Both the position numbers and the translations under genes were made by a program. Positions 6,162 through 56,282 of a DNA stretch of 64,000 nt are shown here, piece after piece. Within the stretch, counting starts at the first letter, position 1, and each line of letters opens with the position of its first letter. Under the pieces are notes generated by a model. The model ran no database searches, was not told where the DNA came from, and saw only the letters and a program-made list of their open reading frames with translations. Location: the NCBI GenBank assembly GCA_902492655.1, contig CABUMF010000007.1, forward strand, positions 1,191 to 65,190. Reading direction: 5' to 3'. The stretch comes from an uncultured Eubacteriales bacterium. Its GTDB lineage: Bacteria; Bacillota; Clostridia; HGM11514.

Positions 6162-6950
6162 CTATACGCCCAAAGCCTCCGCCAGAATTTCGGTTATGTA
6201 GAAAACGGGCAAATCCGAGCCGCAATTTTCAAGATTGTACTTGCAAAGCGGGCAGGATGTCACAATGCAGTCCGCACCGGCTTTCTTTGCGCTTTCAATG
6301 ATTTTGCGGCTTCTTTCCGTAGCCAAATCACGGTTTTCAATCAAAATATAGCCGCCGCAGCACTCGTTTCGCATCGGAAAATAGACGGGACTTGCCCCGA
6401 GAGCGGACACAAAATCCTCCATAATCGAAGGGTTTTCCGGATCGTCCATCCCCAAAACGGCGGACGGGCGAAGGAGAAGACAGCCGTAAAACGGAGCAAT
6501 TTTCCTATCTTTTAAGGGCTTTACAACCTTTTTTGCGACATTTTCAAAGCCCACCTTGTCCCTAAGAACCTCGAGGTAGTTAAGAACCTCGCATTCACCG
6601 CCGTAATAAAAATCCTCCTGCTCGCCCTTCATGTAGGTGTTAACCTTTTGGCGAAAATCGTCATTTGACCTTATAAGGTAATTTGTCTGCTTAATCGTGT
6701 TGTGGCAAGCGGAGCAGACCGAAACCAACGGCTCGCCCCTATCAAATGCCGCCTTCAGCGCACGAACAGACGCAAGCTTTGAGGCAATTTCGTCCTCTGC
6801 TGTTATAAAAACGCCGCCGCAGCACTGCCAGTCGGGGATTTCCGATAGTGAAAACCCCAAAATCTCGCCGCATTTTCTTGCGTAAAAATCAAGATCTTTG
6901 GCCTTTGTCTTAAGTGTACAGCCCGGGAAATAACTGAAATTCATAGCCAA
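6162..6950 (-). CDS. hdrB: Heterodisulfide reductase subunit B-like (two CCG domains)
   Basis: 262 aa; two CCGG-containing Cys-rich CCG domains (DWQCCGGVF, NECCGGYIL). Confidence 0.8.
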   Translation of the reverse strand: MAMNFSYFPGCTLKTKAKDLDFYARKCGEILGFSLSEIPDWQCCGGVFITAEDEIASKLASVRALKAAFDRGEPLVSVCSACHNTIKQTNYLIRSNDDFRQKVNTYMKGEQEDFYYGGECEVLNYLEVLRDKVGFENVAKKVVKPLKDRKIAPFYGCLLLRPSAVLGMDDPENPSIMEDFVSALGASPVYFPMRNECCGGYILIENRDLATERSRKIIESAKKAGADCIVTSCPLCKYNLENCGSDLPVFYITEILAEALGV

Positions 6951-7772: not shown

Positions 7773-9005
7773 TCAACCTTTGTAACAGTTTTGTAATATC
7801 TTTTTTACACATTCGTCAATACTTCCGTTGTTTTCGACTGAAAAATCAGCAAATTGCACATATAAATCATGTCTTTTCTCATAAAGCTCAAAGACTGCCT
7901 CACGGCTTTTTGAAAGAGGTCTGCCGGAAAGGTCTAAGAGGTCGAGGTCACGGCTTATGTAAAAAATTCTGCCGTTTCGGTGGAGGCTTTTGTAGTTTTC
8001 GTGTTTTGTCACGATGCCGCCTCCGGTAGCTATAACCTTGCCCGAAAGCATACCGACAGTCCTTGCCACATCACCCTCAATCAGCCTGAAGCCCTCCTCG
8101 CCGAAGGCTTCAAAAAGCTTTGGAATTTCAGTGTTTTTCTGCTTTTCGATGTACTCGTCGGTGTCGATAAACTCCCTGCTAAGAAGCCTTGCCAGCTCCT
8201 GCCCTACAGTGGATTTTCCGCAGCCGGGCATACCGATAAGCACGATATTTTCCATTTCGGCATCGGTTTCGGATATGATTTTTTCAAAAAGCTCCTCCCC
8301 CGATTCCTTCCCGAAAAAGTGATCGTACGCATAAACGGCTTGAGCGGCGAGCATGGGAAGCCCCGACGTGCATTTGATCCCCAAAGCCTCCGCCTCCATA
8401 ATCAGCTCGGTTCTTACGGGGTTGTAAATCACATCAATCACGCCACTAAGCTTAGTAAACGGCTTAAGGGAAACGGGTGAATTTTCCACATTCGGGAACA
8501 TCCCCACAGGGGTTGTGTTAATTAAAACCTCGGCATCGTAGTGGCATTTTATGTTATCGTAATTCCATTCGCCGTGCCTTGAAACCGTCACAATTTCAGC
8601 ACTTTCGCTTAGCTCGCAGGCGGCACGGGCGGTGAGGCTTGTGCCTCCGCTCCCCAAAATCACGACCTTTTTGCCCGTAAGGGAGATGCCCGCACGCCTT
8701 GCCATGTAGAGAAAGCCTGCGATGTCGGTGTTGTAGCCGTAAAGCTTTCCGCCGAGGTTTACAACGGTGTTTACAGAGCCGATTTTTTCCGCCTCGGGTG
8801 AAATAAAGTCAAGAAACTCCATAGCGTCCTTTTTGTAAGGAATGGTAATGTTTATGCCCTTGAAATTCCGCTCCCCGAAGAACTGCGGCAGCCCTTCCCT
8901 TTCGATTTCGCAAAGCTCGTAGCTGTAATTTCCGATTTTTTTGTGTATAACTCCCGAGTAGCTGTGACCTAACTTTTCGCCGATAAGACCGTACTCCAAA
9001 ATCAC
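7773..9005 (-). CDS. aroE: Bifunctional shikimate dehydrogenase / shikimate kinase (AroE-AroK fusion)
   Basis: N-terminal AroE-like region (LIGEKLGHSYSGVIH...NVTIPYK) and C-terminal P-loop kinase IVLIGMPGCGKSTVGQELARLL. Confidence 0.8.
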   Translation of the reverse strand: MILEYGLIGEKLGHSYSGVIHKKIGNYSYELCEIEREGLPQFFGERNFKGINITIPYKKDAMEFLDFISPEAEKIGSVNTVVNLGGKLYGYNTDIAGFLYMARRAGISLTGKKVVILGSGGTSLTARAACELSESAEIVTVSRHGEWNYDNIKCHYDAEVLINTTPVGMFPNVENSPVSLKPFTKLSGVIDVIYNPVRTELIMEAEALGIKCTSGLPMLAAQAVYAYDHFFGKESGEELFEKIISETDAEMENIVLIGMPGCGKSTVGQELARLLSREFIDTDEYIEKQKNTEIPKLFEAFGEEGFRLIEGDVARTVGMLSGKVIATGGGIVTKHENYKSLHRNGRIFYISRDLDLLDLSGRPLSKSREAVFELYEKRHDLYVQFADFSVENNGSIDECVKKILQNCYKG

Positions 9006-41551: not shown

Positions 41552-41884
41552 ATGTACACTCCCTATAATTCCTTATGTATATTATATTCGTTTGTGCGAA
41601 TTTTTGCAATACAATAAATGAAATTGTAACAAAGATTTTAAATAAATTCAAATTAAAGAAACGAATAATAAAGTATAAATCGACATGAACCTTTATACCA
41701 TATGAACTCTATTTAAGCCATCTGAACCCCATTACTTTCACAAGAAGCATCTAAAAACACGGAAAACCGCTTCGAATTATCTTCGAAACGGTTTGTTTAT
41801 TGTTTCACAAGTGCTGAAAAGCCTTATTTAAAGCCAAAGAACAATAACCCCAACTTTTTATCAAAGTTAGGGTTATAATTTGAG

Positions 41885-41973
41885 CGGAGAGAAAGGGATT
41901 CGAACCCTTGAACGGGTATTAGCCGTTACACGATTTCCAGTCGTGCGCCTTAGACCAGCTCAGCCATCTCTCC
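41885..41973 (-). tRNA. tRNA-Ser (anticodon GGA), class II with long variable arm
   Basis: Minus-strand GGAGAGATGGCTGAGCTGGTCTAAGGCGCACGACTGGAAATCGTGTAACGGCTAATACCCGTTCAAGGGTTCGAATCCCTTTCTCTCCG; cloverleaf foldable by eye; no encoded CCA. Confidence 0.8.
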
Positions 41974-48200: not shown

Positions 48201-48229
48201 TTGATAAGGAGCCTAAAATAATGTATAAT
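48201..48229 (+). promoter_or_regulatory. Promoter TTGATA-17-TATAAT (with TG) driving decayed leader/oadB copy
   Basis: Same architecture as promoter at 54981..55009. Confidence 0.4.
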
Positions 48230-48236
48230 ATTTCAT

Positions 48237-48332
48237 GTAAAAGGGAGTAGCAGACGGCAGATGAGCCGTTTCTGGTGCGTCATTACGGCGGAATATCCGC
48301 CCGCTGCAGAATTAAATTGCGAGACTTTTGCC
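48237..48332 (+). ncRNA. Truncated copy of structured leader RNA (riboswitch-like), paralog of 55016..55137
   Basis: Single-stranded blocks identical to the 55 kb copy, two stems differ but retain pairing; terminator 3' half missing. Confidence 0.4.
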
Positions 48333-48335
48333 TAC

Positions 48336-48600
48336 AAATGATATGTGGGCGCAATCATAGTTGCGGCATATTCCTACATGGCTCTTGTGCCGGTTGTTCA
48401 GCCGCCGGTTATAAAGCTTCTGACGACCGAATCGGAGCGAAAAATCAGAATGGAATACAAACAGAAATCCGTTTCCAAGCTGACGAAAATACTCTTCCCG
48501 ATTATAATTACGGTAATCACCGGTATTGTTTCTCCCAAAAGCGTTGCCTCGTCGGATTTTTGATGTTCGGAAATCTTTTTGAATCAAAGCTTAACAATTT
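48336..48600 (+). pseudogene. Fragment of an oadB paralog (corresponds to roughly residues 157-235 of the 55167..56282 product, then frameshifted)
   Basis: Track ORF 48345..48563 MGAIIVAAYSYMALVPVVQPPVIKLLTTESERKIRMEYKQKSVSKLTKILFPIIITVITGIVSPKSV aligns to internal part of OadB; about 80% nt identity; homology continues out of frame. Confidence 0.55.
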
Positions 48601-48680: not shown

Positions 48681-49085
48681 TTAATATCCATGATCAATAT
48701 GTTGCCACTGTCCTCCGTTTGTTCTGACTAAAATCCAATTCCAATCACTGTACGTGCTATTCGGATTCAAGGACCCATCTCCACCGGATGAATCAACATC
48801 GAATGAAGATAATAAAACAATTACTTCATCTGCACCGTTCCGATCCGCCCAATCTTGATAAGCTTTTGAGCTGTCATCCCCTGCATAATAAATCTCTTTA
48901 AGAGTGCATCCGTTCCAGTCGCTCTTAAACTCTTTTTTAATAGTGTCAATTGCCGCTCTGATGTCCTCTTCGGAATATATTTCAGATTCTACATTATGCG
49001 TTTTTACTTCATTAACATTTCCGCCGCAAGCACTCAAGCTAAATACAAGCAGAATACACAGCATTGCACATTCAAGCTTTTTCAT
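48681..49085 (-). CDS. Lipoprotein of unknown function
   Basis: Lipobox LSACGG after signal peptide; 134 aa. Confidence 0.5.
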   Translation of the reverse strand: MKKLECAMLCILLVFSLSACGGNVNEVKTHNVESEIYSEEDIRAAIDTIKKEFKSDWNGCTLKEIYYAGDDSSKAYQDWADRNGADEVIVLLSSFDVDSSGGDGSLNPNSTYSDWNWILVRTNGGQWQHIDHGY

Positions 49086-49146
49086 AATCCACCCTACCTC
49101 CGCAAATTCTGAAATTTCTATCTTTTATTCCTTTGATAAAATTCTT

Positions 49147-49596
49147 TCAGATCAGCTTTTTTAATATACCGATACATCCCTCGTTTACATCGTTCCATGT
49201 TGCTTCAAAATCCCCTGTATACCAAGGATCGGCTACATCCCCGGGATGATTTGTAAAGTCCATTAAAAGCGAAACCTTGTTATCGGGATCGTTTCCTGCA
49301 AACCGTGTCATATTCCTGAGATTTAAGCGATCCATTGCTATTATATAATCGTAATACGCATAGTCTTCCTTTGTCATTTGGCGTGCTGTTTTGCCTTCGC
49401 AGGAAATTCCATGCTCCTTAAGCTTTCTTTTCGCCGGAGGATATACGGGATTTCCGATTTCCTCCGTACTGGTTGCGGCAGAAGAAATTTCAAATTGATC
49501 TGCCATGCCCTTTTTATTTACCAATTCTTTCATCACAAACTCCGCCATCGGACTTCTGCAAATATTGCCGTGGCAGACAAATAATATTCTAATCAT
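49147..49596 (-). CDS. Low-molecular-weight protein-tyrosine phosphatase
   Basis: CHGNICRSPMAE P-loop near N-terminus; start placed at ATG 49596 (MIRILFVCHGN) with AGGAGA RBS. Confidence 0.75.
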   Translation of the reverse strand: MIRILFVCHGNICRSPMAEFVMKELVNKKGMADQFEISSAATSTEEIGNPVYPPAKRKLKEHGISCEGKTARQMTKEDYAYYDYIIAMDRLNLRNMTRFAGNDPDNKVSLLMDFTNHPGDVADPWYTGDFEATWNDVNEGCIGILKKLI

Positions 49597-49957
49597 ACTC
49601 TCTCCTGTTATTTTAATGTCTTTAATCTTATAGTTTTGATAAATCATCCAACTCAATTTTTGGCATCATAATATTGTCATTTATTATAAACATCAGCATA
49701 TATATCGGATAATATGTTATTTTGCCAACAACCGAAACATTATAATTTGAAAGAACAAAGGCTTCTTTAACAGAATAATTTGAGATATTCAGCACATTGT
49801 TCAATGCAGAATGGCTGTTTTATTTTTTTATGGAGCATTTCACTCACCTACAGTCATTATCATACCAACATTTTGACATTTATGCAATAGATTTTTGAAA
49901 ATAAATGACATTTTTCAAATAGATTTATTTCAAATTAAGTCATTTTTCAAATCCGGT

Positions 49958-49994
49958 ATAAAAACAGAGCAGCTCCGATATGTGGGAGCTGCTC
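49958..49994 (-). terminator. Terminator of ABC transporter operon
   Basis: Hairpin gagcagctcc..ggagctgctc + U-run on minus strand after stop 50023. Confidence 0.5.
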
Positions 49995-50022
49995 CAAAAA
50001 ACATATTAATTATGGGATAAAA

Positions 50023-51078
50023 TTATCCTTCGTAAACGAGGTTATTCTTAACCATTTCGTCAACATTTTCGCTGTTCCACCAAGCACCTGCGATAGCAAC
50101 ATCCGGTGTAACTTCCTTACCCTCAGCCGCGAAAATTGCCTGTTCAACAGCCTGATAGCCGATCTGATAGGAGTCCTGAGCAACTGCGCCGATAAGCTTC
50201 GGACCGGTTGTCTTCTTCATCCATTCGATCTGCTTTGAGCCTGCGTCAAATCCGCAGAACTTAATGTCGTCATACTTTGAGCCTGCAGCGCCGATAGCGT
50301 CATAAACCTGCTTAACAACGCCTTCGTTACTCATAAAGATAGCCTTTGCGCCCTTTTCGTAAAGAGCCTCGAGAGCAGCCTTGTAAGCCTGGTCAGCATC
50401 GCCGGGCTTAACTTCCTTGGCGATTTCGTACTTGCCCTTTGTGGAAGCGTCAGCATCGGCAAGCTCTATGAACTTTTCTTCAAAGCCGCCTGCACGGTCG
50501 ATACCTGTCTGAGTTTCGTCGTGCTGAATGATACCTACAACATATGTGTCGGTAGAAGCTGCGATTTCGTCCTTGATTGCTTCAAAGAAGTTTTCGGCGT
50601 CAAGCCCTGCAGCAAGGCGGTTGCTTGTAGCAACGGAAGAAACGATAGGATTCGTTCCTGCCTTGTCAAGAGCGGCGATGTCGTTAGCCCAGATACCGCT
50701 GTCGAACTGAACAACGGGGATTTTCTCATTGAAAGCCTGAGTGAGGCTGTCAACAAAGCCTTCGCCGATAGTACCCAAAACCATAGCGGCAGGGCTGTTG
50801 TTAAGAGCTGTACTTACCATTTCCATCTGAGAGGGCAAATCCTTGGCGGATTCGCTTGCGGGGCCCTGGAAGGTTACATTGTAGCCGTATTTTTTACCTG
50901 CGTCAACTGCGCCTGCCTTAACCGACTGCCAGAAAGCGTGGGATTCGCCTTTTGCAACAACAGCGATTGTCTTACTGCCGCCGTCACTGCCTTCTTCTCC
51001 GCCGCCGCAGCCTGCAAGACACATGCAAGCGGTAACGATACAAAGAGCCAACAAGAGTACCTTTTTTAAGATTTTCAT
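50023..51078 (-). CDS. Sugar ABC transporter substrate-binding lipoprotein (PBP type I, ribose/galactose family)
   Basis: Lipobox LAGCGGG; periplasmic-binding-protein fold signature by composition. Confidence 0.75.
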   Translation of the reverse strand: MKILKKVLLLALCIVTACMCLAGCGGGEEGSDGGSKTIAVVAKGESHAFWQSVKAGAVDAGKKYGYNVTFQGPASESAKDLPSQMEMVSTALNNSPAAMVLGTIGEGFVDSLTQAFNEKIPVVQFDSGIWANDIAALDKAGTNPIVSSVATSNRLAAGLDAENFFEAIKDEIAASTDTYVVGIIQHDETQTGIDRAGGFEEKFIELADADASTKGKYEIAKEVKPGDADQAYKAALEALYEKGAKAIFMSNEGVVKQVYDAIGAAGSKYDDIKFCGFDAGSKQIEWMKKTTGPKLIGAVAQDSYQIGYQAVEQAIFAAEGKEVTPDVAIAGAWWNSENVDEMVKNNLVYEG

Positions 51079-51133
51079 TTTGGAATTCCTCCTAAATTTT
51101 TTTATTTCAGATTCTGTCAGAATCCGATTAACA

Positions 51134-52366
51134 TTATTTTATTTTTGCCTTTTCGGATATGAATGAATTTTTAAGCTGAAGCTTTTCTGAATTAAGAGCC
51201 TTAATTCTGTGCGCTCTTTCATGAGCCGGAACAGACTTGTCGGAGTATGCAATATCGAGCTTTTCCTCGATTGCGGCTTTGTTTTCCTTATATTCTCTGC
51301 GAAGCTTCTGAGCGGGAGTTTCAATCTTTACACGAGCGGCACGGTTGTTTTTAACGATGTCCATAAGCACAGCGGCAACAACGATGATACCCGTCAAAAC
51401 ATAGGTTACATAGGTTGCGTTGATGTTAACATTGAAGCGAGCGAGCACGAAGTTAAGACCGCTCCTGATAACAACAAGCATCACGCTTCCGATAACCGAG
51501 CCTGCAACGGAAGCAACACCGCCTGCGGCACTTGTACCGCCGATATAAACGCCTGCGATAGCGTCAAGCTCGTAGCCATTACCTGTTGCAGCGGCAACGG
51601 TTGTGAAGGAAGCCGACCAGAAAATAGCCGCAATACCTGCACCGATTCCGCTGAAAACATAGGCAAGCATTTTGTACTTATCCGTATTGATACCCGAAAG
51701 GCGTGTAGCCTCTTCATTTGAGCCGATTGCAAGGATATAGCGACCGGTTTTGTTTTTATACATAAGGTACATACAAATGAGCATAAAACCTACAACCCAT
51801 ATAAGCCCAACCGGGAATTTGTTGTAGTTTGAAAACAGCTTGTTGTACCAGCTTCCTGTGGGATAGAAGATGTTTGGAACCTTAACGATAATTGCGCTGA
51901 GGCCTCTTGAAAGCATCATCGTACCCAAGGTTGCGATGAATGCGGGAACCTTAAGCTTTGCAATGAGCAAGCCGTTTATAAGACCGAAAACACCGCCTAT
52001 TATAATCATAATCGGTATAACCGCCCAGAGGGGGACGATATTTAAGGTATAAAGATGACCTGCAACAACGGCGGAAGCGATACACACCGTACCGATAGAA
52101 AGGTCAATTCCGCCCGTAGCGATAACGAAGGTAACGCCGAGAGCCAAAATAGCGTAAGGAGCAAGGCTCTGCGCCATGCTGACGATGTTGTAAACCTTCA
52201 AGAAATTGGGATTTAAGATGTAGAATACCGCAATAAGAGCGATAAGGGCAAGAAGGATAATCATATTCTGTTTGCCCTTGGTGGTAACCGAATCCCAAAG
52301 CTTTGCGCCCGTCCTGCGCAGACGGCGCGCGGGGGTTAATTTGATATTTTTGTTTTCCATGTTCAT
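51134..52366 (-). CDS. Sugar ABC transporter permease (RbsC-like) with about 70-aa charged C-terminal extension
   Basis: 410 aa, about 10 TM helices, then KR/E-rich tail RVKIETPAQKLRREYKENKAAIEEK... Confidence 0.75.
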   Translation of the reverse strand: MNMENKNIKLTPARRLRRTGAKLWDSVTTKGKQNMIILLALIALIAVFYILNPNFLKVYNIVSMAQSLAPYAILALGVTFVIATGGIDLSIGTVCIASAVVAGHLYTLNIVPLWAVIPIMIIIGGVFGLINGLLIAKLKVPAFIATLGTMMLSRGLSAIIVKVPNIFYPTGSWYNKLFSNYNKFPVGLIWVVGFMLICMYLMYKNKTGRYILAIGSNEEATRLSGINTDKYKMLAYVFSGIGAGIAAIFWSASFTTVAAATGNGYELDAIAGVYIGGTSAAGGVASVAGSVIGSVMLVVIRSGLNFVLARFNVNINATYVTYVLTGIIVVAAVLMDIVKNNRAARVKIETPAQKLRREYKENKAAIEEKLDIAYSDKSVPAHERAHRIKALNSEKLQLKNSFISEKAKIK

Positions 52367-52381
52367 TTCCTCCTGATTTAT

Positions 52382-53896
52382 CTATGCAAGTTCACGCATT
52401 GTAGCGTACTTCATAATTTCTTCCTGAGTAAGCCCTTCGATAGGCAAATCCGCTGTAATTCTGCCCTCGCACATAACGATAACACGGTCGGACAGACGCT
52501 GAATTTCCGCAAGCTCGGAGGAAATCATGATAATCGACTTACCCTCCGAAGCGAGCTTTTCCATAAGCTCGTACATTTCGCTCTTTGCGCCGATGTCGAT
52601 GCCTCGGGTAGGCTCGTCGAATATGAAAATATCGGCATTTTTGAGGAGCCAGCGAGCGACGATAACCTTCTGCTGATTACCGCCCGAAAGATTTTTAACA
52701 GCCTGCTCCATTGAAGGAGTTTTGGTTCTGAGGCGTGCATTGACCTCGGCGGAAACCTTCGAAATTTCCGAATCCGAAATCCAGCCTGCGTGAATAAAAT
52801 CGTCCATGGAAGCGATTACGGTGTTTTCGGCAACGGATTTTATGAGCATAAGCCCGAACTGCTTTCTGTCCTCCGAAAGATAGCATATACCGTTTTTAAC
52901 CGCCGATTCGGGAGTTGTGATTTTAACCTTTTTGCCGCCTATGAAAATTTCTCCGGAATCGAACCTGTCAGCCCCGTAAATTGCACGGGCAAGCTCGGTT
53001 CTGCCTGCGCCCATAAGCCCTGCAAAGCCGAGAATTTCGCCTTTTTTAAGATTAAAGCTTACATTTTTAAGCGTGTTACCGGAGGAAAGATTTTTGACCT
53101 CAAGAGTAACGGGAGCGTCGCAGGGAACAAGGCTTTTTTCCTTTTGTTCGTTGTAGATAACCCTGCCCACCATCATTTTAACGAGCTCGTCCTTAGTGGT
53201 TTCCTTGGTGTTAATGGTGCCCACATACTCACCGTCACGCATTACTGTTATTCTGTCCGAAATCCTACCGATTTCATCCATACGGTGAGAAATATATATC
53301 ATGCCGATGCCCTTTTGCCTTAGATCGTTCATGATTGCAAACAATTCCTCAACCTCGGGCTGAGTCAAAGCGGCGGTAGGCTCATCTAAAATAAGAAGCT
53401 TTGAATCTCTTGAAATAGCCTTTGCGATTTCAACCATCTGCTGTTTTCCTACCGTAAGCGACCCGAGCCTTGCGGTGGGGTCAATCCTTATGCCTATGCG
53501 GTCAAAAAGAGCCTTGGCATCTTCAATCATTTTGCGGTCGTCGATAAACACACCGCCCACCTTCGGTTCCCTACCTATATAGATGTTTTGAGCAACCGTC
53601 AGATGCGCCATCATGTTAAGTTCCTGGTGAATCATGCTGATTCCGGCTTCCTGGGACTCGGCAATCGAGTTGAAATTAACGGACTTACCGAACAGCACCA
53701 CATCCCCGGCATCCCTGTGATGAATGCCGCAAAGAACCTTCATGAGCGTCGATTTTCCCGCGCCGTTTTCGCCCATAAGAGCATGAACCTCTCCGGCACG
53801 GAGATCGAAATTAACGGAACGCAGTGCATGAACACCCGAAAATCGTTTGTCAATTCCGGTCATTCTTAAAATTTCCTCATTCATCAGTTTTTTCAC
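52382..53896 (-). CDS. Sugar ABC transporter ATP-binding protein (duplicated ATPase domains, RbsA/MglA-like)
   Basis: 504 aa with two Walker A (GENGAGKST; second degenerate), signature LSGGNQQK and Walker B motifs. Confidence 0.85.
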   Translation of the reverse strand: MKKLMNEEILRMTGIDKRFSGVHALRSVNFDLRAGEVHALMGENGAGKSTLMKVLCGIHHRDAGDVVLFGKSVNFNSIAESQEAGISMIHQELNMMAHLTVAQNIYIGREPKVGGVFIDDRKMIEDAKALFDRIGIRIDPTARLGSLTVGKQQMVEIAKAISRDSKLLILDEPTAALTQPEVEELFAIMNDLRQKGIGMIYISHRMDEIGRISDRITVMRDGEYVGTINTKETTKDELVKMMVGRVIYNEQKEKSLVPCDAPVTLEVKNLSSGNTLKNVSFNLKKGEILGFAGLMGAGRTELARAIYGADRFDSGEIFIGGKKVKITTPESAVKNGICYLSEDRKQFGLMLIKSVAENTVIASMDDFIHAGWISDSEISKVSAEVNARLRTKTPSMEQAVKNLSGGNQQKVIVARWLLKNADIFIFDEPTRGIDIGAKSEMYELMEKLASEGKSIIMISSELAEIQRLSDRVIVMCEGRITADLPIEGLTQEEIMKYATMRELA

Positions 53897-54090
53897 TTCC
53901 CTTTGCGTTGAGTAATTTAACTAAAATTCTTGTCAAATCGTATACCCTTTATATCTATTTTAGCAAAAGAAACAGATAAATACAATAGATATTATTGCTT
54001 ATTTTACAGAGCAATAAAATCCTAAATTCTATTGACTTAAGGTATTATTTGTGATATTATGGTTATATAATATATAAAAAAGGTGATTGT

Positions 54091-54960
54091 ATGGCAGTTA
54101 CGCACCGCATAAACAATGAAGAACGACAGCATTATTTGCTTGAAAAGCACTATTCGCTAAAGCTCAAGCCGAATCTTATGTATGTGGGTTCACTGGAAAA
54201 AAACGTCGGCTGGAGAGAGGAGCCCCATTCCCACGATTATCTTGAGATGATTTTTATTGTTGACGGAAAAGGCACAATCACATATGGAGAAGCCGAGGAG
54301 CATGATGTATCGAGGGGAGATATTGTAATATACAACGCCGGGGTTAAGCACCATGAAAAATCCTGCGAGGATGACCCCATGGAAGCAAAATTCATAGCCT
54401 TTGACCACCTTAAAATCACCGATTTGCCGCCGAATTGGCTTTTGCCGCCGTCATACAGTCAGATATATCACACAGGCGATATGTACGATATATTCGACAG
54501 GTATTTGAATTTCATTCTCAAGGAGCTTAACAATAAGGAGCGGCTGTATGTGGAAATTTGCCAGAACATGGCAAGAACGCTTATCATGTATCTTTTCCGC
54601 CTTATAAACAAAACGGAGAAATCGGCGTGTCTTTTTGAAAACGGCAAAATGCTGGAGTCGGTTTCCGTCTACATTTCGGAGCATTATTCGGAAAATCTCA
54701 CTCTTGACGAAATTTCAAAGAACTGCCGTATAAGCAAGTATTATTTGTCCCATATTTTTTCAAAATCATACGGAAAAAGCCTTGGAAAATATATTCTCGA
54801 ATACAGGCTTGACAAAGCTCGGGATTTGCTTTCCGCAACGAAGCTTTCGGTAAGCGAAATCGCAAAGAGCGTTGGATATTCCGATGTCAGCTATTTTTGC
54901 AGATTATTCAAAAGGGAGGTCGGATTGACTCCCCTTGCCTTCCGCTCAAAAAACAGTTGA
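54091..54960 (+). CDS. AraC-family regulator with N-terminal cupin domain
   Basis: 289 aa; C-terminal AraC HTH (LTLDEISKNCRISKYYLSHIFSKSYGKSLGKYILEYRLDKARDLL...SVSEIAKSVGYSDVSYFCRLFKREVG). Confidence 0.8.
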   Translation: MAVTHRINNEERQHYLLEKHYSLKLKPNLMYVGSLEKNVGWREEPHSHDYLEMIFIVDGKGTITYGEAEEHDVSRGDIVIYNAGVKHHEKSCEDDPMEAKFIAFDHLKITDLPPNWLLPPSYSQIYHTGDMYDIFDRYLNFILKELNNKERLYVEICQNMARTLIMYLFRLINKTEKSACLFENGKMLESVSVYISEHYSENLTLDEISKNCRISKYYLSHIFSKSYGKSLGKYILEYRLDKARDLLSATKLSVSEIAKSVGYSDVSYFCRLFKREVGLTPLAFRSKNS

Positions 54961-54980: not shown

Positions 54981-55009
54981 TTGACAGCACCGGAAAAATG
55001 ATGTATAAT
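54981..55009 (+). promoter_or_regulatory. Consensus promoter TTGACA-17-TATAAT with TG extension
   Basis: ttgacagcaccggaaaaatgatgtataat read directly. Confidence 0.5.
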
Positions 55010-55015
55010 AGCCTT

Positions 55016-55137
55016 GTAAAAGGGAGTAGCAAACGAATAATCGTTTCTGATGCGTCATTACGGCAAATTTTGCCCGCTACAGAATTAAATTGCGAGACTT
55101 TTGCTGTATTTATGCGGCAGAAGTCTCGTTTTTTAAT
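55016..55137 (+). ncRNA. Structured 5' leader (riboswitch-like) ending in intrinsic terminator, upstream of oadB
   Basis: Conserved box GUAAAAGGGAGUAGCA, two hairpins with compensatory substitutions relative to copy at 48237..48332, terminator cgagactt..aagtctcg + U6. Confidence 0.5.
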
Positions 55138-55166
55138 ATAAAAAATCATGAAAGGTGAATTTTTTA

Positions 55167-56282
55167 ATGTCTGAATTGTTTTCAAACGCAGTCAACATAC
55201 AATGGCAGCAGGTTGTAATGTGGCTTATAGGCGGTCTGTTGATTTATCTTGCAATCAAAAAGGATATGGAGCCTACGCTTCTTTTGCCCATGGGGTTCGG
55301 AGCGATTTTGGTTAACCTTCCTCTTTCGGGGGCGGTTACGCAGGGGAGCGAAAAGGGCGTAATTGATGTACTTTTTGATGCAGGCATCGCAAATGAGCTT
55401 TTTCCGCTTCTGCTTTTTATCGGAATAGGCGCGATGATTGACTTCGGCCCGCTTCTTTCAAACCCGAAGCTCATGATTTTCGGTGCTGCGGCGCAGTTCG
55501 GAATATTCTTTACATTGGGAGTTGCGTCCCTTTTGGGCTTTGAGCTTAAGGATGCGGCATCAATCGCAATCATCGGTGCGGCGGACGGTCCCACATCAAT
55601 CTTTGTTGCACAGCACTTTGCATCAAAATATGTCGGTGCAATTATGGTTGCGGCGTACTCGTACATGGCGCTTGTTCCTGTTGTTCAGCCGCCTGTAATC
55701 AGGCTTCTCACAACAAAGTCCGAAAGAAAAATCAAAATGGATTACAAGCAGAAGTCCGTTTCAAAGCTTGCAAAAATCCTTTTTCCGATTATTATTACAA
55801 TCATCACCGGAATTGTATCACCTAAAAGCGTAGCCCTGATCGGCTTTTTGATGTTCGGAAATCTCATAAGGGAATGCGGAGTGCTCGATTCGCTTTCCGA
55901 AACCGCACAGAAGGTTCTGGCAAACCTTGTAACCCTTTTCCTCGGAATAACGATAGCCACAAAAATGCAGGCGGAGCTTTTCCTCACAAAGGAAACCCTT
56001 ATGATTATAGGTCTGGGGCTTGTGGCATTTATATTTGACACCGCAGGCGGCGTTATTTTTGCGAAAGTCCTCAATCTGTTCCTCAAAAAGGGCAAGAAAA
56101 TCAACCCCATGATCGGTGCGGCGGGCATTTCGGCATTTCCTATGTCCGCAAGGGTTGTGCATAAGCTCGGGCTCGAGGAGGATAATCAGAATTTCCTTCT
56201 TATGCACTCAATCGGGGTTAATGTTTCGGGACAGATTGCGTCGGTTATCGCAGGCGGCATGATTCTTAATCTTATCAAATGA
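55167..56282 (+). CDS. oadB: Na+-translocating decarboxylase beta subunit (OadB/GcdB/MmdB family)
   Basis: MSELFSNAVNIQWQQVVMWLIGGLLIYLAIKKDMEPTLLLPMGFGAILVNLP resembles OadB N-terminus; start at ATG 55167 preferred over GTG 55155. Confidence 0.8.
   Translation: MSELFSNAVNIQWQQVVMWLIGGLLIYLAIKKDMEPTLLLPMGFGAILVNLPLSGAVTQGSEKGVIDVLFDAGIANELFPLLLFIGIGAMIDFGPLLSNPKLMIFGAAAQFGIFFTLGVASLLGFELKDAASIAIIGAADGPTSIFVAQHFASKYVGAIMVAAYSYMALVPVVQPPVIRLLTTKSERKIKMDYKQKSVSKLAKILFPIIITIITGIVSPKSVALIGFLMFGNLIRECGVLDSLSETAQKVLANLVTLFLGITIATKMQAELFLTKETLMIIGLGLVAFIFDTAGGVIFAKVLNLFLKKGKKINPMIGAAGISAFPMSARVVHKLGLEEDNQNFLLMHSIGVNVSGQIASVIAGGMILNLIK

Follow-up and report, generated by a model that had tools for sequence, protein, structure and literature searches.

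What kind of RNA precedes oadB in this Clostridia genome, and to which signal does it respond? The gene encodes a sodium ion-translocating decarboxylase beta subunit, and its leader lies within the window (the whole 64-kb stretch of DNA analyzed here). An earlier note, made from the letters of this DNA without database searches, had described a promoter, a structured leader, and an intrinsic terminator in front of "oadB-oadG"; it had proposed a transcription-terminating riboswitch, and it had mentioned both a Na+ (DUF1646-type) element, suggested by the gene context, and a likeness to the yybP-ykoY (Mn2+) family. The answer was sought in the architecture of the leader, in its homologues, in the genes that follow them, and in the coverage of the Rfam database.

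The oadB leader and its decaying second copy

The consensus promoter, leader, and terminator ~30 nt before oadB that the earlier note had described are all in place (Table 1), with the ATG of oadB at 55167, 30 nt past the terminator U-run. Blocks of sequence that had been taken for single strands are indeed conserved, but they are partly paired and form P1.1, P1.2, and P3.1. The second of the two hairpins is likewise real, but it consists of 5 bp with a 3-nt loop, and the flanking C pairs into P3.1. The 5' arm of the terminator (GCGAGACUUUUGCUG) is the same RNA as the 3' strand of P1.2, the 3' side of L1, and the 3' strand of P1.1. Closure of the aptamer and termination are therefore mutually exclusive, which makes read-through (ON) the predicted outcome of metal binding. 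Thus, the proposal of a transcription-terminating riboswitch stands for the structured leader and its intrinsic terminator but would have to be reversed in its logic; because the terminator arm is the 3' half of L1/P1, the ligand is expected to cause anti-termination and not termination.

Table 1. Features of the two leader copies and of the associated oadB sequences (positions in the window)
Feature	Position	Strand	Description
Promoter, copy A	54981..55009	+	-35 TTGACA 54981-54986, 17-nt spacer, -10 TATAAT 55004-55009; 12/12 consensus match, sigma-70-type
Predicted transcription start, copy A	~55016	+	From spacing; ~7 nt past the promoter
Aptamer, copy A	55016..55104	+	~90 nt, three-way-junction (3WJ) yybP-ykoY (Mn2+) fold
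P1.1, copy A	55016-55022 with 55098-55104	+	GUAAAAG/CUUUUGC
L1 5' side, copy A	55023-55028	+	GGAGUA; box GGGAGUAG spans 55022-55029
P1.2, copy A	55029-55031 with 55091-55093	+	GCA/UGC
P2 hairpin, copy A	55032-55045	+	
P3.1, copy A	55046-55054 with 55075-55083	+	CUGAUGCG/CGCUACAG
CGUCA, copy A	55053-55057	+	First C belongs to the C-G pair above L3; UCA opens L3
C-G pair above L3, copy A	C55053-G55076	+	
L3, copy A	55055-55061	+	UCAUUAC; metal-contacting C55056-A55057 (feature definition: PMC6649816)
P3.2 hairpin, copy A	55062-55074	+	5 bp, 3-nt loop
UNAAA junction, copy A	55085-55089	+	UUAAA, single-stranded, in place of P4
L1 3' side, copy A	55094-55097	+	GAGA; GAGAC at 55094-55098
Intrinsic terminator, copy A	55092..55134	+	17-bp stem 55092-55129, U-run 55129-55134
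Likely ribosome-binding site (RBS), copy A	55151..55157	+	AAAGGUG, predicted from sequence; 9 nt before the ATG, outside the terminator
oadB	55167..56282	+	371 aa, orphan sodium ion-translocating decarboxylase beta subunit; Pfam OAD_beta E 4.7e-155, TIGR01109 434 bits
Promoter, copy B	48201..48229	+	TTGATA, 17-nt spacer, TATAAT; 11/12 match
Aptamer, copy B	48237..48331	+	Core boxes all intact; without terminator
L1 box, copy B	48243-48250	+	GGGAGUAG
UNAAA junction, copy B	48312-48316	+	UUAAA
L1 3' side, copy B	48321-48325	+	GAGAC
oadB pseudogene remnant	48327..48576	+	Fused straight to aptamer B; blastn

The gene behind the leader is an orphan. No oadG, oadA, or biotin-carrier gene adjoins oadB in the window, and the "oadB-oadG" pair has to be given up: no family matches the 47-aa ORF that had been read as oadG, and on four syntenic contigs gene callers placed nothing between oadB and a ThuA-like gene. 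The identical OadB protein, in the same synteny, was found on four metagenome contigs. It keeps E40, D203, Y229, N373, G377, S382, R389, and N412; conservation against 6IVA holds for E40, D203, S382, and N412. A reading in which OadB had lost catalytic residues (Arg304 = Ser and Asn311 = Lys relative to StOadB) was rejected because both positions vary equally in riboswitch-free homologues and because alanine mutants merely weaken activity. The search for OadB homologues returned close relatives alone (85-95% identity) and was of no use for a comparison with canonical beta subunits.

The diverged second promoter and leader in front of a decayed oadB, also described in the earlier note, were recovered as copy B (48201-48331), followed by an OAD_beta fragment (ORF 48345-48563, covering Pfam profile positions 138-204). 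The two aptamers are 81% identical (blastn). Pairwise alignment showed the L1, L3, and junction boxes to be identical in both, and it bore out the observation that the hairpins differ in sequence while keeping their pairing: P3.2 carries two A-U to G-C double changes, and P2 carries one double change, one wobble, and one extra pair. The oadB remnant corresponds to 55617-55864 of copy A (codon ~150 onward; 80% identity by blastn), and a search for a terminator behind aptamer B found none; ~512 nt, comprising the 3' half of the terminator, the RBS, and 150 codons, are missing. Since aptamer B is fused to codon ~150 of oadB across this loss, copy B is, as far as can be judged from sequence, the decaying relic of an anciently diverged paralogous module that has kept its aptamer and lost its terminator and most of its gene. 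The compensatory differences between the copies reflect divergence while copy B was still functional. Another contig (L123, 905-1337) keeps ~260 nt more of the remnant, where a 182-aa ORF was called, and this variation in remnant length between strains indicates that decay is ongoing. An intact copy beside one without terminator and gene offers a natural example of the decay of a riboswitch module.

Two side observations concern the same region. At position 55050/55079 of P3.1, an A.A mismatch in copy A faces a G.G at the same position of copy B, a correlated change at a non-Watson-Crick pair that is Watson-Crick in most homologues. The interval between the copies (48681-54960) holds a gene for a low-molecular-weight phosphatase, a sugar-type ABC transporter operon (binding protein, permease, and ATPase; - strand), and, on the + strand, an AraC-family regulator whose end lies 21 nt ahead of promoter A.

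Covariation and class of the riboswitch

A degenerate three-box pattern matched the two copies alone within the 64-kb window and gave 0 matches in 100 shuffles. When species-representative genomes were scanned with it, at least 119 loci from several phyla were obtained. Two types could be distinguished among the matches listed: type 1 lacks P2 and has a P4 hairpin (Bacillaceae and others), and the reverse, P2 without P4, marks type 2, which occurs in streptococci, in Clostridia, and in both window copies. RNAalifold, run on 67 type-2 sequences that had simply been aligned with MAFFT, arrived independently at P1.1, P1.2, and portions of P2 and P3.2, and the junction read U/G-AAA in most type-2 members. 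A covariance model (R1) of the full 3WJ structure was built solely from window-type elements; it scored copy A at 75.0 bits (E about 5e-18) and copy B at 71.5 bits (E about 5e-17) and detected no third copy in the window. Pattern and model alike place the two copies well outside what chance would give.

In an alignment of 101 elements realigned with R1 (A3), 89.1% of cells were paired, compared to 65.6% in shuffles and 24-45% with slid partners. Double-sided changes were present at 21 of the 26 pairs, and the covariation score of 0.566 (vs. 0.173) was reached by 0 of 500 shuffles. The pair above L3 was CG in 98 of 99 sequences and the adjoining pair GC in 96 of 99. The comparative alignment of oadB leaders that the earlier note had suggested was obtained as an independent set of 33 sequences (A5), retrieved from metagenomes via the OadB protein and not via the RNA. 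It was 90.2% paired (vs. 72.7%), and 19 of its 26 pairs covaried. These included P1.2, a helix frozen by the three-box pattern, in which AGC/GCU alternated with AAG/CUU. GG-AGUA of L1 and A-AC on the 3' side of L1 (AAA in one member) were each at least 97% conserved in A5, and L3 relaxed to CGUCA-NN-AC. All five helices covary, with both the shuffle and the slide controls exceeded. In 52 of 53 oadB-linked elements the 3' strand of P1 also forms part of the terminator; copy B alone departs from this. The fold is thus established by covariation, the metal-site nucleotides are conserved, and the aptamer and terminator exclude each other; the view that covariation marks a functional RNA structure, first taken from two copies, holds across about 130 homologues.

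The class can be recognized from a characterized relative. The S. pneumoniae mgtA leader (SN44) is a yybP-ykoY riboswitch with a three-way junction (Martin et al. 2019, PMC6649816). In this RNA, P4 is replaced by an invariant UNAAA, an invariant AGA lies on the 3' side of L1, the metal site is made of G-G-A from L1 and C-A from L3, the C-G pair above L3 accepts an A-minor contact, and a terminator follows the aptamer (PMC6649816). The L1 G-G-A of the class both contacts the metal and makes the A-minor contact (PMC6649816); the invariant L3 C-A is C40-A41 of L. lactis. Every published defining feature of the 3WJ form is present in copy A, and all but the terminator in copy B. The oadB leader most likely belongs to the three-way-junction form of the yybP-ykoY (Mn2+) family, in which UNAAA takes the place of P4, and would act on transcription as an ON-riboswitch. 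The resemblance of AAAGGGAGUAGC to this family, pointed out in the earlier note, was correct, as the box is the L1 box of the Mn2+ riboswitch. R1 also found the RF00080 site of E. coli mntP, a validated riboswitch (22.5 bits, E about 1e-3), which ties window-type elements to the validated family, and the RF00080 consensus includes UUGGGGAGUAGCcg and GCGUCAACAUAC, the two boxes of the window element.

Copy A shares with the pneumococcal mgtA leader the succession P1.1/L1/P1.2, P2, and P3.1/L3/P3.2. In both RNAs, UNAAA stands where P4 would be, the 3' side of L1 carries AGA, L3 contains C-A, and the terminator overlaps with the aptamer on its 3' side; the ON-switch logic would also be common to both, for copy A by homology. 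They differ in the downstream gene (an orphan OAD_beta in copy A versus a PII-type Mn2+/Ca2+ ATPase), in the top pair of P1.1 (A-U versus G-C), in the pair adjoining L3 (G-C versus U.G), and in the host (an uncultured Clostridia bacterium versus a streptococcus). The four-way-junction members of the family (L. lactis yoaB, E. coli mntP/alx, and B. subtilis yybP/ykoY; RF00080) have the L1 and L3 boxes and the docking architecture in common with the window element and, if homology is a guide, Mn2+ ON regulation as well; TerC and P-type ATPase genes belong to their regulon, as they do to that of the window-type family. In contrast to copy A, their P3 is followed by a P4 hairpin and P2 is often absent, and L3 of E. 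coli is 2 nt longer than in the window element. The RF00080 model gives the window element no score. The riboswitch class is known, and its 3WJ subtype has already been characterized experimentally; the oadB leader is a further member, and its gene association is what is unexplained.

From this homology we infer Mn2+ as the ligand and ON as the direction of control, the former because the oadB-linked aptamers keep every metal-site nucleotide. In the proposed mechanism, transcription would start ~7 nt past the consensus promoter. At low levels of the cognate divalent cation, the P1/L1 3' half (GCGAGACUUUUGC) would pair downstream, the 17-bp terminator would form, and transcription would halt before oadB. 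At high levels, the cation would form a bridge from the L1 loop (GGGAGUAG/AGA) to the C-A of the L3 bulge; Mn2+ is the likeliest candidate, as it was shown for the mgtA riboswitch of S. pneumoniae, which belongs to this subtype. With P1 locked in this way, no terminator would form and oadB would be transcribed.

Genes behind the switch and the identity of the cation

Among the matches listed, OAD_beta was the gene downstream of the motif in 19 of 121 cases and the second commonest, after PII-type ATPases (30) and before TerC (16). PII-type ATPases and TerC are found downstream across the family and represent the classic Mn2+ regulon; the other downstream families were Na_Ca_ex, CitMHS-like, Na_Pi_cotrans, CNNM, and DedA. 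From the side of the protein, a metagenome search with OadB gave 80 loci, and ~69 of these had enough upstream sequence to be judged. In 33 of the 80 (33 of the ~69 judgeable) an R1 element immediately preceded oadB in the same orientation, so that about half of a large oadB clade has its stand-alone Na+-pump beta subunit headed by a Mn2+-type switch. The riboswitch-oadB unit was monocistronic across 18 other species, where no recurrent partner (alpha, gamma, or biotin carrier) was found beside the riboswitch-linked oadB. OAD_beta is not a recognized Mn2+ exporter, and no published link was found. A literature search for a Mn2+ riboswitch before a decarboxylase beta subunit returned none, although the gene tables of the founding papers could hold a prior mention. 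A Mn2+-type riboswitch on a stand-alone Na+-pump subunit gene is an unusual pairing, and it recurs in many gut Clostridia.

The genomic company of oadB extends beyond the monocistronic units. In one locus (L166; riboswitch 157-264, downstream to ~2445), the riboswitch is followed by a Na_Ca_ex-family gene (322 aa), a 23-nt gap, and oadB in an apparent operon, which would put a Na+-pump subunit and a Na+-coupled cation exchanger in physical linkage behind a single switch. Riboswitch-free oadB genes were found directly after CorC/CNNM (L193 and L195, gap 33) and directly after TerC (L191 and L185, gaps 42 and 32). Other neighbors were a P-type ATPase (L200) and a membrane pyrophosphatase (L128 and L178), and a biotin carrier adjoined oadB in L183 and L189 only. 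A search for a riboswitch before the terC-oadB and corC-oadB operons, with filters off and limited upstream sequence, found none, and neither Na+-I nor any other riboswitch was found upstream of 18 riboswitch-free oadB loci.

Elsewhere in the family, Oceanobacillus arenosus (L050) carries two Mn2+-riboswitch-like elements ~1.2 kb apart (6654-6750 and 7906-7998, - strand). In Clostridia and Chloroflexota, atypical genes follow the riboswitch: a Na+/Pi cotransporter with a PhoU domain, CitMHS/ArsB-like permeases, a Band_7/SPFH protein, and DedA/VTT proteins (L012, L017, L025, L043; L011, L042, L056, L062, L072, L103; L047; L024, L079).

The same fold and mechanism could serve another cation. If the oadB-linked subgroup answered in vivo to Ca2+, to another divalent metal, or (less plausibly) to Na+, the gene set would mirror that ion instead of Mn2+, and the downstream genes in Clostridia do include Na+/Ca2+ exchangers, Na+/Pi cotransporters, CorC/CNNM, and OadB. 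The family is not strictly specific for Mn2+: in vitro, the 3WJ aptamer of the pneumococcus has a higher affinity for Ca2+ than for Mn2+, and read-through at mgtA is activated in vitro by Mn2+ and more weakly by Ca2+, but in vivo that switch answered to Mn2+ alone (PMC6649816). The subgroup also has recurrent differences in its flanks, with A-U atop P1.1, G-C in place of U.G by L3, and CGUCA-NN-AC at L3. Against a shift in selectivity, however, the differences sit in helix pairs and not in loops, and the nucleotides known to contact the metal are all unchanged; oadB-linked aptamers differ from the ATPase- and TerC-linked ones in helix pair identities alone. In known structures the site is composed of phosphate oxygens and a purine N7 and would not fit a monovalent ion, which counts against Na+. 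Taken together, a response of the oadB-linked subgroup to a cation other than Mn2+ is considered unlikely, and Mn2+ is retained as the probable ligand.

Rfam coverage and implications

At gathering thresholds, the sole Rfam match in the whole window was a tRNA-Ser (anticodon GGA) at 41884-41973 (- strand). Of the families named in the earlier note, neither RF00080 (yybP-ykoY) nor the DUF1646 or nhaA-I models matched either copy even in permissive mode (E<=10), but a full-length, sub-threshold match to copy A was given by RF02617 (SSRC10; 55017-55132, 39.3 bits, E 2.9e-6, gathering 56). Copy B scored 19.3 bits with the same model, also below gathering. As a positive control for RF00080, the E. 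coli K-12 mntP leader (L120, 962-1058) scored 41.6 bits against a gathering threshold of 45, and the model was also silent on canonical-looking Bacillaceae TerC leaders (L009, L030, and L048). Because RF00080 leaves its own prototype below gathering and misses these TerC leaders, its silence on the window is uninformative and carries little weight against the assignment. Of the two outcomes that the earlier note had named as refuting, a lack of Rfam matches applies only in part, given the sub-threshold match to RF02617, and covariation is present in the wider alignments.

What RF02617 (Streptococcus sRNA 10; Tesorero et al. 2013, PMC3675131) describes is the mgtA leader RNA of S. pneumoniae itself, terminator included. 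The family is typed gene/sRNA by Rfam, its structure line lacks P1 and P3.1, and it is restricted to streptococci, where its loci score 68-80 bits and are also found by R1. The SSRC10 transcript of S. pyogenes ends at a terminator after ~113 nt and is encoded immediately ahead of a "putative calcium transporter" in the same orientation (PMC3675131). At the streptococcal loci L003, L005, and L007, SSRC10 coincides with the 3WJ Mn2+ riboswitch plus terminator of a PII-type ATPase (mgtA) leader. The Rfam label implies that the ~115-nt terminated transcript of the oadB leader might act mainly in trans as a small RNA; the homologous transcript is abundant on S. pyogenes Northern blots (PMC3675131), and copy B could still yield an aptamer-containing RNA. 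A trans-acting role is nonetheless very improbable, given that in about 150 cases the element immediately precedes a membrane transporter gene of the same orientation, that conservation is concentrated in the aptamer loops and the aptamer/terminator overlap and not in a seed-like single strand, and that cis action was demonstrated for the pneumococcal homologue (PMC6649816).

The Na+ reading, in the form of a Na+-I (DUF1646) or a Li+ (nhaA-I) riboswitch, was reasonable, in that OadB is a Na+-pump component and Na+-I elements, cation-sensing ON switches with a competing terminator as is proposed for the oadB leader, occur occasionally upstream of oxaloacetate decarboxylase genes, including in Clostridia (White et al. 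2022, PMC9337991), but it is wrong here and has next to no chance of surviving. In Na+-I, two extended hairpins (P1 and P2) stand in tandem, and the conserved nucleotides cluster at the P1 base and in the P2 loop (PMC9337991); this unrelated fold, with other conserved nucleotides and a monovalent ligand, does not match the covariation-supported 3WJ closed by P1. The differing architecture, together with the lack of a Rfam match at E<=10 for either copy (with the Na+-I and Li+ models run without a positive control), effectively refutes Na+-I.

The assignment of the oadB leader to the 3WJ form of the Mn2+ riboswitch has a consequence for annotation. A common form of this riboswitch is invisible to the current RF00080 and is partly filed as an sRNA (RF02617). 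Since RF00080 is blind to the 3WJ form, pipelines pass over the oadB leader and, in gut and rumen Clostridia, hundreds of others like it, and Bacillota Mn2+ riboswitches would go unannotated with this Rfam release.

For the biology of these organisms, the occurrence of oadB relatives in operons with Na+/Ca2+ exchangers, CorC/CNNM, and TerC points to a link between sodium energetics and the efflux of divalent metals, of which no description was found in the literature. Tentatively, the riboswitch-oadB module may mark an unrecognized arm of the response of anaerobic Bacillota to divalent-cation stress, in which an excess of Mn2+ or Ca2+ induces OAD_beta; in a weaker variant, the oadB-linked subgroup may have a shifted ligand selectivity. 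If such a response exists, the induced orphan OAD_beta would supply a Na+ gradient for Na+-coupled exporters (Na_Ca_ex and CorC/CNNM) or would move divalent cations itself.
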